From: Naegleria gruberi
Lineage: Eukaryota
Direction: 5' to 3' (one strand)
DNA: 1,709 nt
Assembly (NCBI GenBank): GCA_000004985.1
Contig: GG739341.1
Below are positions 1 to 1,709 of this stretch, in pieces. A program made the position numbers and the translations under genes. The notes beneath the pieces were generated by a model. It was not told the DNA's origin. It saw only the letters and a program-made list of their open reading frames with translations, and searched no databases. The stretch's first letter is position 1. Each line of letters starts with the position of its first letter.

Positions 1-1
1 T

Positions 2-688
2 TGGCAACTCAATGTAGCTAGTAGTTTTTCAAGAGTTAAGAAAGGTCTTACTAAAGCCTATATTGTGGATCGTTCTAAACTCAAACGTAATGGTTTCTCC
101 TCTTATGATATTAAATCATATATTGATTCGATTTCATCACATGATGAATATACCTATAATTTAACCACTGCTGTACTGGTTATTGGTTTCAGACTTCTAG
201 CAAGACCTGGTGATCTTTGCGATCTCTCTTGGTCTTCTGTGAAACCAAATGATCCAAAGAAAAATTGGTTTACATTTGATCTATCAGGCCACAAAACTGA
301 TTTTTTCATGATTGACGATCCAACCCCAATCGAACCTTACTGTGGTGAAAAGAAATACTGTCCATCCTTTATACTTAATAGATATATGAAGATGGTCTCT
401 CACTTCAAGTCTCCTGACTCACCATTATTCTCATGGGCAGACGATTTGTACCTAGATACAATTGACCTTTCTAATATTATTAAGACTGCTATGTCTTCTA
501 TTGGTGTCTTTCATACTTCTGGCCACAGTGCAAGAATTGGTGCAGCTACTAAACTCACTTCTAAAGGAATTTCAGAAGTTATTATTAAAACAGCAGGTTA
601 TTGGATGCCAGGTTCCAGATCTAGAAAGCATTATCAAAGTAGAATAGGTCTTGCTTATCAAGGTTTAACTACTACTATGCTTAAATAA
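2..688 (+). CDS. Tyrosine (site-specific) recombinase, C-terminal catalytic domain; 5'-partial (continues upstream of window); Crypton/DIRS-like flavour
   Basis: Frame 2 has no stop from pos 2 to TAA at 686-688. The listed start at 65 is a GTG with open frame upstream (..WQLNVASSFSRVKKGLTKAYIVDRSK..), so the gene begins outside the window. Box I Arg: LVIGFRLLARPGDLCDLSWSSV. Beta-hairpin Lys: DLSGHKTDF. Box II HxxR: HTSGHSARIGAATKL. Trp in the His-III position (as in Cre): TAGYW. Tyr nucleophile about 10 residues after the Trp: SRSRKHYQ. Only ~40 aa precede the catalytic domain, so the N-terminal core-binding domain must lie upstream. Confidence 0.8.
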   Translation, partial: WQLNVASSFSRVKKGLTKAYIVDRSKLKRNGFSSYDIKSYIDSISSHDEYTYNLTTAVLVIGFRLLARPGDLCDLSWSSVKPNDPKKNWFTFDLSGHKTDFFMIDDPTPIEPYCGEKKYCPSFILNRYMKMVSHFKSPDSPLFSWADDLYLDTIDLSNIIKTAMSSIGVFHTSGHSARIGAATKLTSKGISEVIIKTAGYWMPGSRSRKHYQSRIGLAYQGLTTTMLK

Positions 689-785
689 TCTCGGGACCTT
701 ACCCATTAGTATAATTACTTGTTCTCAATCTTGTTTTTATTAATTTGCAATGTAACATGTCTAATTCTGAGCGAAAAAAGTAGCT

Positions 786-1046
786 ATGAAACAAGCCAAT
801 CCGTTTTTCTTTTTGTGGGAATCGATATCACATTTCTTAAGATTATCAGAAAATTTGACAAAAGGAGCCAAATACATAAGTGCAACATCACTTTGTGTAT
901 ATTACAATGAAATTGGTGATGAAGGAGCCAAACATATAAGTGAAATGAAACAGTTGATATCACTCGATATTGGTAACAATTTAATTAGTGATGAAGGAGT
1001 TAAATATATCAGTGAAATGAAACAATTGATATCACTAAGAAAATAA
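786..1046 (+). CDS. Leucine-rich repeat protein fragment (~2.5 x 24-aa repeats, GDEGAK/ISEMKQL type); probably truncated remnant/pseudogene or isolated exon
   Basis: Translation ..YYNEIGDEGAKHISEMKQLISLDIGNNLISDEGVKYISEMKQLISLRK* fits the LxxLxLxxNxIxxxGxxxIxxxxx LRR consensus with a 24-aa period. The upstream part (LSENLTKGAKYISATSLCVYY) is a degraded copy carrying a 4-aa in-frame deletion. An in-frame TGA at 768-770 sits 5 codons before the ATG, so the ORF cannot extend further. At 86 aa it is too short for a functional LRR solenoid. Confidence 0.5.
   Translation: MKQANPFFFLWESISHFLRLSENLTKGAKYISATSLCVYYNEIGDEGAKHISEMKQLISLDIGNNLISDEGVKYISEMKQLISLRK
849..1037 (+). repeat. Tandem 72-bp (24-codon) direct repeats, 3 copies with 5'-most copy degraded (coding LRR units)
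   Basis: Unit 918-989 (gatgaaggagccaaacatataagtgaaatgaaacagttgatatcactcgatattggtaacaatttaattagt) is followed by a near-identical copy at 990-1037 (gatgaaggagttaaatatatcagtgaaatgaaacaattgatatcacta). A degenerate copy at ~849-917 (aaaggagccaaatacataagtg..) has a 12-nt deletion. Confidence 0.75.
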
Positions 1047-1176
1047 GTTGTCCCATATCTTAAAATATTCTAAATTGAAATGCAACCATAAGAGTTGATA
1101 TTTCAGAAATTAAGGGCCACTAATTCACACAATTTTCACTTTGACTCTGTAATTTGTTATTTTTCTTTACAACATG

Positions 1177-1220
1177 TTTCGACCTTGAACTCGAAAGAAG
1201 TTTAATTTATTTTTAACTCT
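1177..1220 (+). terminator. Weak hairpin (6-bp stem tttcga/tcgaaa, 8-nt loop) followed by T-rich tract; possible 3' end signal for the LRR fragment transcript
   Basis: tttcga(1177-1182)-ccttgaac-tcgaaa(1191-1196) form a perfect inverted repeat, followed by agaag tttaatttattttt (1201-1216). The stem is short and AT-rich, so predicted stability is low. Confidence 0.2.
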
Positions 1221-1273
1221 AAAAAAAAAAAACACAACAAACAACACGACAGTAGCCACACCAACAAACAACA
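1221..1273 (+). repeat. Poly(A)12 tract followed by CA/CAA-rich low-complexity leader immediately 5' of the ATG at 1274
   Basis: a12 at 1221-1232, then acacaacaaacaacacgacagtagccacaccaacaaacaaca running to the ATG. A poly(dA:dT) tract followed by a purine/CA-rich leader is typical upstream of highly expressed eukaryotic (e.g. yeast ribosomal-protein) genes. It would also fit an SD-less A-rich leader as in Bacteroidetes. There is no Shine-Dalgarno motif. Confidence 0.6.
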
Positions 1274-1709
1274 ATGGCAATAATGTATGGAGGATTGGCA
1301 AGAAGTGGTAAAGTCAAATATCAAACACCACGTGTAGAAAAGACCAGCGATTCATCCTATCACGGAGGTTGCGCCAAATACAAAATCAAATCATCAAATA
1401 ATTTATCATATTCGGGAGGTGCTCATCGGTTGGAGAAGAATTTTACTGAAGAGTTGAAAGTCTATGATCAATACAAGGAAAATCATCAACGATGTGATTG
1501 GGTGGAGGAGAGAGCGAATATAAAGAGATCAGAACCTGTTCTTTTGAATTCCTTTCACAAGTTTAATACTGAGAAGGGTTTTAACAAGATGGAATGGAAT
1601 TCAATGAAAAAGGAGGAGAATATCTTGAAGAATAGATACAATTATAATCCAAATGCAAAGAATCATAAAAAGTGGCATAGAAATCATCCTAAAGATGGTT
1701 TATCAAAAG
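1274..1709 (+). CDS. Hypothetical K/N/E-rich protein, 3'-partial (runs off window end); N-terminal 24 aa resemble ribosomal protein eS30
   Basis: ATG at 1274-1276 follows an in-frame TAG at 1253-1255, and the frame is open for 145 codons to the window end. An open frame this long is unlikely by chance in AT-rich DNA. It is missing from the supplied ORF track apparently because it has no stop inside the window. The first 24 residues, MAIMYGGLARSGKVKYQTPRVEKT, match the eS30 N-terminus as I recall it from yeast ([24 protein letters not shown]) at ~17/24 positions. The remainder (SDSSYHGGCAKYKIKSSNN...KKEENILKNRYNYNPNAKNHKKWHRNHPKDG) is unrelated and much longer than eS30 (~60 aa). Confidence 0.55.
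   Translation, partial: MAIMYGGLARSGKVKYQTPRVEKTSDSSYHGGCAKYKIKSSNNLSYSGGAHRLEKNFTEELKVYDQYKENHQRCDWVEERANIKRSEPVLLNSFHKFNTEKGFNKMEWNSMKKEENILKNRYNYNPNAKNHKKWHRNHPKDGLSK

Follow-up and report, generated by a model that had tools for sequence, protein, structure and literature searches.

The window, meaning throughout the whole stretch of DNA that was analysed, is a single 1709-bp unplaced scaffold of Naegleria gruberi on which two partial genes are annotated. One of these (EFC35343, P0001 in our collection) encodes the end of a tyrosine recombinase (YR), while the other (EFC35344, P0014) encodes the beginning of a protein that resembles the ribosomal protein eS30. Between them lies an open reading frame (ORF) composed of leucine-rich repeats (LRRs). 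A preliminary description of this DNA had proposed three such pieces at about these places on one strand, and this was borne out, as the recombinase, the LRR ORF and the eS30-like ORF are all on the + strand. The window quite likely spans a junction at which a DIRS1-like tyrosine-recombinase retrotransposon finishes, on its 3' side, and ordinary host DNA takes over. With much the same confidence, we consider the three pieces to be neighbours through insertion and decay, not a set collected by the element. The features are given below in window positions.

2 to 688, + strand: C-terminal 228 codons and stop codon (TAA, 686-688) of the YR ORF of the DIRS1-like element, from the frame-2 translation, with 100% identity to P0001/EFC35343.
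686 to 714, + strand: near-invariant 29-nt motif TAATCTCGGGACCTTACCCATTAGTATAA over the YR stop codon, with 0-6 mismatches per 29 nt in five elements.
689 to 759, + strand: untranslated 3' tail of the element, from homology to the related contig L001 up to the last base of that contig.
744 to 759, + strand: second conserved block in the tail, TTTGCAATGTAACATG, from the alignment.
786 to 1046, + strand: unannotated 86-codon ORF of about three 24-residue LRR units, of LRR_6, GALA or ribonuclease-inhibitor (RI)-like type, from Pfam, PDB and the repeat structure.
826 to 886, + strand: LRR unit, degenerate and cut down to 60 nt (none of 500 shuffles scores as high).
887 to 958, + strand: LRR unit, 78% identical over 72 nt to the one that follows.
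959 to 1030, + strand: LRR unit, the partner in that 72-nt comparison.
1031 to 1101, + strand: possible decayed further LRR unit past the ORF stop, reading in frame IEMQP, stop, ELI against ISEMKQLISL of the unit.
1047 to 1273, + strand: intergenic DNA, probably with the 5' leader of the eS30-like gene (G+C fraction 0.295, A-run at 1222-1233).
1274 to 1709, + strand: first 142 codons of the eS30-like gene, a copy or allele of NAEGRDRAFT_80950, open from the ATG at 1274 to the scaffold end.
About 1274 to 1441, + strand: degenerate eS30 domain, from Pfam S30 and the alignment with eS30 in the PDB.
1661 to 1699, + strand: conserved NHKKWHRNHPKDG motif, from the family alignment.

The recombinase 3' end is intact, as the preliminary description had it, with 228 open codons running to the stop. 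The label of truncated LRR stub is also fair for the middle piece (Pfam LRR_6, 27.9 bits against a cut-off of 23.4), which is the only true stub of the three. Where the recombinase and the eS30-like ORF break off, these are merely the two ends of a 1709-bp scaffold. The short AT-rich spacers that had been described are present, with an AT enrichment that is only slight: the G+C content is 33% over the window and 35% in the two end ORFs, against 0.30-0.32 in the LRR ORF and spacers.

The recombinase ORF lacks its 5' part because the scaffold ends there, and what remains gives a weak match to Pfam Phage_integrase (E=0.008, 16.4 bits). Its relatives P0002-4, all from environmental assemblies, are 302-353 amino acids long and 71-82% identical to it, and the full-length P0003 and P0004 (71-74% identical) reach 28.6 and 31.3 bits against the cut-off of 27.1. 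The HSARIG...GYW...KHY residues of the window aligned to H289-x-x-R292, W315 and Y324 of Cre, as did the HSxRIG...GNW...RY box of the family profile. Two further blocks, ARPGD and GHKTD, are invariant across the recombinase family alignment and would correspond to Arg I and Lys; the window copy retains all of these residues. It also has a one-codon in-frame deletion at about 56-61 (KA-YIVDR) that is seen in none of its relatives, not even in the 99%-identical contig L009. Between element families the recombinase has a dN/dS of 0.05-0.13, so that it is a gene under selection that works in this lineage.

In the accepted model for DIRS elements, the recombinase inserts a circular DNA copy made by the reverse transcriptase (RT) of the element. 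The window itself stops short of the RT region, and the evidence for an RT comes from the related contigs L001, L002, L009 and L010. In L001, L002 and L010 the YR ORF and the end of an ORF upstream of it share 4 bp. In L009, a degenerate copy with 99.1% identity to window positions 1-568, the order of gag, RT and recombinase is the same, but the RT and YR ORFs are 28 nt apart. The upstream ORF matches RVT_1 with E=1.9e-23 in L002, 4.6e-21 in L009 and 1.2e-20 in L010, and it is preceded by a gag-like ORF in L002 and L009. Its match to ribonuclease H (RNase H; RVT_3) is weak, with E=0.007. A methyltransferase domain after RNase H separates the DIRS1 and PAT groups from Ngaro and VIPER, and matches to the Pfam Dam methyltransferase were found at the same place in three elements, with E=7.5e-5 to 6.4e-4 and 20-23 bits, below the 28.1 cut-off. 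The YR frame also stays open across pol, which is read in another frame, for 793 codons in L001 (325-2706) and 905 codons in L002 (1004-3721), in AT-rich sequence and in two families. A long overlap of pol and YR, the catalytic domain lying 3' of it, is described for DIRS1-like elements (PMC3266345).

The recombinase belongs, as the final gene, to a DIRS1-like (or PAT-like) retrotransposon, and is neither that of a Crypton nor a host gene. The order of gag-like ORF, pol (RT, weak RNase H, weak Dam-like match) and 3' tyrosine recombinase is common to its relatives and to DIRS1-like elements, for which DIRS-1 of Dictyostelium discoideum is the reference. Low copy number and often degenerate copies are further points of likeness, and have been reported for N. 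gruberi. Piednoel et al. (2011) listed 7 DIRS1-like copies in 6 families in this species, too degenerate for the phylogeny in that paper (PMC3266345), and RepeatMasker assigned 89 fragments to DIRS in the N. lovaniensis genome (PMC6125883). The transposon class is thus already catalogued in Naegleria, and DIRS1-like elements already reported in N. gruberi, so neither is new here.

A conserved non-coding signal was found at the element's 3' end. Five elements carry the 29-nt motif, once each (window 686-714, L001 2704-2732, L002 3719-3747, L006 1076-1104 and L010 2795-2823), with the consensus TAATCTCGG(A/G/T)ACCTTACCCATTAGTATAA. The coding regions of these five elements are 70-81% identical and their synonymous sites are saturated (dS 0.8-3.8). 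Near-invariance of the motif in spite of this saturation argues for a cis-acting role, and the motif probably serves the element in cis, possibly as part of an internal complementary region (ICR). To our knowledge, this post-stop motif has not been described before, and it provides a concrete candidate cis-acting site for Naegleria DIRS-like elements. Metagenome scans with recombinase peptides and with the 29-nt motif returned no match.

Homology to the other elements continues past the stop codon. By blastn, window 2-759 aligns to L001 2017-2779 at 81% identity, and the element's true 3' end is at or beyond 759. L001, L002, L006 and L010, four independent assemblies, all end 38-73 bp past the YR stop, which suggests that a repeat, either an inverted terminal repeat (ITR) or an ICR, or else the element boundary, starts there. 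ITRs together with ICRs near the 3' end are the hallmark of DIRS1-like elements. A search for inverted and direct repeats within window 660-1300 gave nothing convincing, and the window tail showed no complementary pairing with either the L009 or the L002 5' end or with any of the contig tails, none of the contigs reaching the termini. Since no ITR/ICR pairing was found, the 3' end can be placed only as at or beyond 759. One candidate spotted by eye, a similarity of the reverse complement of L009 1-41 to window 760-800, was not above shuffles and was rejected. DIRS1-like and PAT-like elements, the latter with split direct repeats, are not distinguishable from the short contigs at hand, in which the defining ITRs and ICRs were not found.

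Two further copies of the element part from the common sequence at different points. L009, from an N. gruberi-like strain (ENA sample ERZ929261), departs from it at window 568, within the recombinase gene, beyond which comes unrelated DNA that holds a convergent host ORF (L009 3720-4239). The 3' end of its pol (2800-2930) has a deletion or frameshift. P0012 (NAEGRDRAFT_76934), encoded on a 2393-bp N. gruberi scaffold, diverges after KKYCP, near window 364, and has several substitutions. L009 and P0012 are dead copies that were truncated differently, each with its own junction. Neither of them carries LRR or eS30-like sequence.

Downstream of the element tail, the LRR ORF has the 24-residue period of GALA and RI-like LRR proteins (LRR_6), with the consensus L.SL.I..N.IGDEGAK.ISEMKQ. 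In the PDB, it matches GALA-type LRR proteins with E=4.7e-13, and NLRP/RI-type repeats are among the best matches. The period in the DNA is 72 nt, the units are 78-88% alike, and a 61-nt core is 87% identical. It differs from the known proteins in having only about three units, with no terminal flanks or partner domains, and in being unannotated. The ORF breaks off mid-unit, where LISL is followed by RK and the stop. We also noticed that its start (window 786-794, GCT ATG AAA CAA) resembles the E-M-K-Q codons of the repeat (GAA ATG AAA CAG), and the start codon may be left over from an LRR unit further upstream. The search for homologues of the ORF found none at E<=1e-3, and the ORF is absent from a collection of 15 billion proteins and from the annotation of the scaffold. 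It is most likely the pseudogene remnant of a longer LRR gene, one possibly adjacent to the element insertion or disrupted by it.

The best of the alternatives bears on this piece. The ORF could be a functional small LRR gene or a terminal exon, which would make the window a row of three live neighbours. With 86 open codons, an ATG, two well-preserved units and a good LRR_6 score, it has several attributes of such a gene. However, it is annotated by neither JGI nor NCBI, and its absence from the protein collection and the lack of homologues count against a working gene. In addition, the ATG falls where the EMKQ motif of the repeat would be, the unit upstream is shortened to 60 nt and degenerate, and the array ends mid-unit and is followed by an apparent broken unit. 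We therefore regard a functional LRR gene as unlikely, and a decaying remnant remains the preferred interpretation of this ORF.

Between the LRR ORF and the eS30-like gene (1047-1273), the analysis detected neither an RNA family nor a tRNA nor a significant repeat, and scans of the window with Rfam and for tRNAs and bacterial promoters or terminators gave nothing meaningful. The eS30-like ORF that follows is identical at 142 of 142 residues to NAEGRDRAFT_80950 (P0007, 169 amino acids), which is encoded on a 339-kb scaffold. The last three residues of the window ORF differ from P0007, giving DGLSK in place of DGFYQK, since 2 nt are missing from a T-run. This deletion, at about 1700 in GATGGTTTATCAAAAG, sets the window apart from all homologues and puts the last 10 nt of the scaffold out of frame. 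Either this copy or allele has a real frameshift, or the read was wrong at its end.

The resemblance to eS30 (PF04758; RPS30/FAU) extends beyond the N-terminus. Against Pfam Ribosomal_S30 the window ORF scores 27.1 bits, borderline at a cut-off of 27, and members of its family score 26.8-32.2 bits. In a PDB search, window residues 3-56 align to residues 3-59 of the 62-residue eS30 (E=1e-4). As the alignment covers nearly all of eS30, the whole domain is present, with a degenerate basic half. Over these first ~56 residues the G-[GS]-LAR-[AS]-GKVK-x-QTP-[KR]-V core is nearly identical to that of eS30, whereas the basic second half (KKKTGRAKRR..RRFVN) is degenerate in the family. The family proteins are also longer, at 108-208 amino acids, owing to a C-terminal extension with the motif NHKKWHRNHPxDGFYQxR; eS30 itself has about 60 amino acids and occurs on its own or behind a ubiquitin-like domain. 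Much stronger conservation would be expected of a true single ribosomal protein, and in contrast to the single, highly conserved ~60-residue eS30 gene there are at least six divergent paralogues in N. gruberi.

This architecture, a degenerate but complete eS30-like domain followed by the C-terminal motif, recurs well outside the window. A profile search of 1.84 billion representatives returned 32 proteins at E<=1e-3, and the motif is present in about 20. The N. gruberi members, at least six, are NAEGRDRAFT_80950, 54652, 67609, 75501, 75033 and 65282. They are joined by at least four N. lovaniensis genes, FDP41_006432 of N. fowleri and three Willaertia magna genes (the family proteins in our collection are P0007-P0011, P0017, P0020-P0035 and P0051). 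The N. gruberi paralogues are 36-72% identical to each other, and the family is conserved across the four species with invariant blocks. As far as sampled, it is restricted to Naegleria and Willaertia. The gene for the N. fowleri protein P0009 (47% identical), which is not established as the one-to-one ortholog of the window gene, is intact and intronless and lies between NPL4-like and Kelch/BTB genes. It was the only N. fowleri member whose context was read, and no recombinase, transposon or LRR was found near it. The architecture is old and conserved, the normal form of a lineage-specific gene family. The preliminary description had proposed that an eS30 N-terminus was grafted onto another ORF at this locus, and the occurrence of the same arrangement in so many genes of four species speaks against such a graft.

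Put together, these results would give the following arrangement. The recombinase gene, the last of the element, is intact as far as the scaffold extends and is followed by the short conserved non-coding tail, with the element probably ending near base 760. The first host feature beyond it would be the short, decaying and non-functional remnant of an LRR gene, possibly of the gene in or beside which the element landed; a link between this remnant and the insertion is possible. The second is the promoter-proximal part of a normal conserved gene with an eS30-like N-terminal domain. The junction may be specific to one haplotype at the NAEGRDRAFT_80950 locus, and being a haplotype or repeat variant of this locus is possibly what kept the scaffold unplaced. 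Redundancy with that locus would explain its status, along with other duplicated loci in the assembly, for example P0008, which is present on two contigs of the same assembly.

Several points weigh against this arrangement. The methyltransferase matches are under the Pfam gathering score. No ITR/ICR pairing was found, so that formally the LRR-like stretch could lie in the terminal region of the element. The evidence that the LRR array once extended further is uneven: the decayed unit at 1031-1110 is marginal (23 of 500 shuffles reach its score), with short in-register direct repeats (D3, D4), and a decayed unit at 760-832 is not significant (191 of 500 shuffles). Finally, the comparisons rest on individual contigs and proteins.

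Another explanation is that the juxtaposition is not genomic, and that the scaffold is an assembly artefact formed as a chimera of unrelated Sanger reads or from a low-quality read pair. The scaffold is tiny and unplaced, the 2-nt deletion relative to all homologues lies 10 nt from one end and the one-codon deletion near the other, and the assembly holds redundant loci such as that of P0008. Yet at neither of the candidate junctions does the composition change abruptly or vector-like sequence appear. Each segment is biologically coherent, and a transposon tail that gives way to host DNA has the look of a real insertion. On balance, an artefact seems improbable, somewhat more so than a functional LRR gene.

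The preliminary description favoured a fragment-capturing mobile element, in which the LRR and eS30 pieces would be passengers as in Pack-MULEs or Helitrons. The likeness is superficial: several gene-derived pieces stand beside a transposon gene, collinear on one strand with short spacers, and as the 3' terminus of the element has not been located, the LRR stretch could formally sit inside it. In Pack-MULE or Helitron capture, however, other copies would be the place to look for the pieces, and they are absent from L009 and P0012, both of which leave the shared sequence within the recombinase gene. Capture is thus not supported by these copies. The four related contigs end 38-73 bp after the stop, and the last block in common reaches only to 759, short of the LRR stretch. 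The eS30-like ORF, moreover, is not a fragment, since it matches a complete annotated gene of a family conserved across genera and is cut by the scaffold end only. DIRS elements are not known for transducing pieces of host DNA, and we consider capture very unlikely. The same description had allowed for a region shaped by a mobile element or rich in pseudogenes, and here the DIRS1-like recombinase agrees with the former and the LRR remnant with the latter; the eS30-like gene is intact. It was right that the unit extends beyond the window. It had also named a block in single copy whose pieces have intact, syntenic orthologs as the observation that would count against it; the eS30-like piece does have intact relatives in related species, whereas the recombinase is mobile and multi-copy. 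An origin of the recombinase from a Crypton-type DNA transposon or a domesticated host gene, which the window alone might suggest with its lone recombinase and generic Phage_integrase match, is hardly credible, as each related contig of sufficient length has an RT ORF directly upstream of the recombinase and several truncated, near-identical copies exist.

With insertion and decay as the preferred account, the locus matters little in the terms in which it was posed, being a transposon-host junction on a leftover scaffold. It does illustrate that contig ends and lineage-specific gene families can look like a mosaic of fragments.

The eS30-like proteins are apparently an undescribed multigene family, and in this respect they are the one modestly new item at the locus. 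No paper on the family was found in a literature search, and no Pfam domain besides S30 was found in it at E<=10. The AlphaFold model of P0007 is mostly coil or disordered, with a mean predicted local distance difference test (pLDDT) of 52 and a predicted template modelling score (pTM) of 0.21. The KKWHRNH part of the C-terminal motif recalls the RKWHRNG signature of eL29, but this resemblance was unsupported by Pfam at E<=10 or by a motif profile against the PDB, and it was dropped. As a tentative speculation, the proteins could be ribosome-binding paralogues, either subunits of specialised ribosomes or assembly or hibernation factors acting at the eS30 site, although we would not put this as the expected outcome. 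If Naegleria were without a canonical eS30, one could even speculate that the family supplies the working eS30. This uncharacterised and expanded family should be of use to specialists in ribosome evolution or in heteroloboseans. A minor observation concerns the DNA that encodes the NHKKWHRNHPKDGFYQ motif (window 1653-1707, compared with L003 10365-10421 and L007 1083-1130), which is 88-94% identical among N. gruberi paralogues and N. fowleri, while outside the motif the proteins are only 36-47% identical in the same N. gruberi/N. fowleri comparison. The high identity of the motif DNA may reflect mere codon bias in an AT-rich genome.

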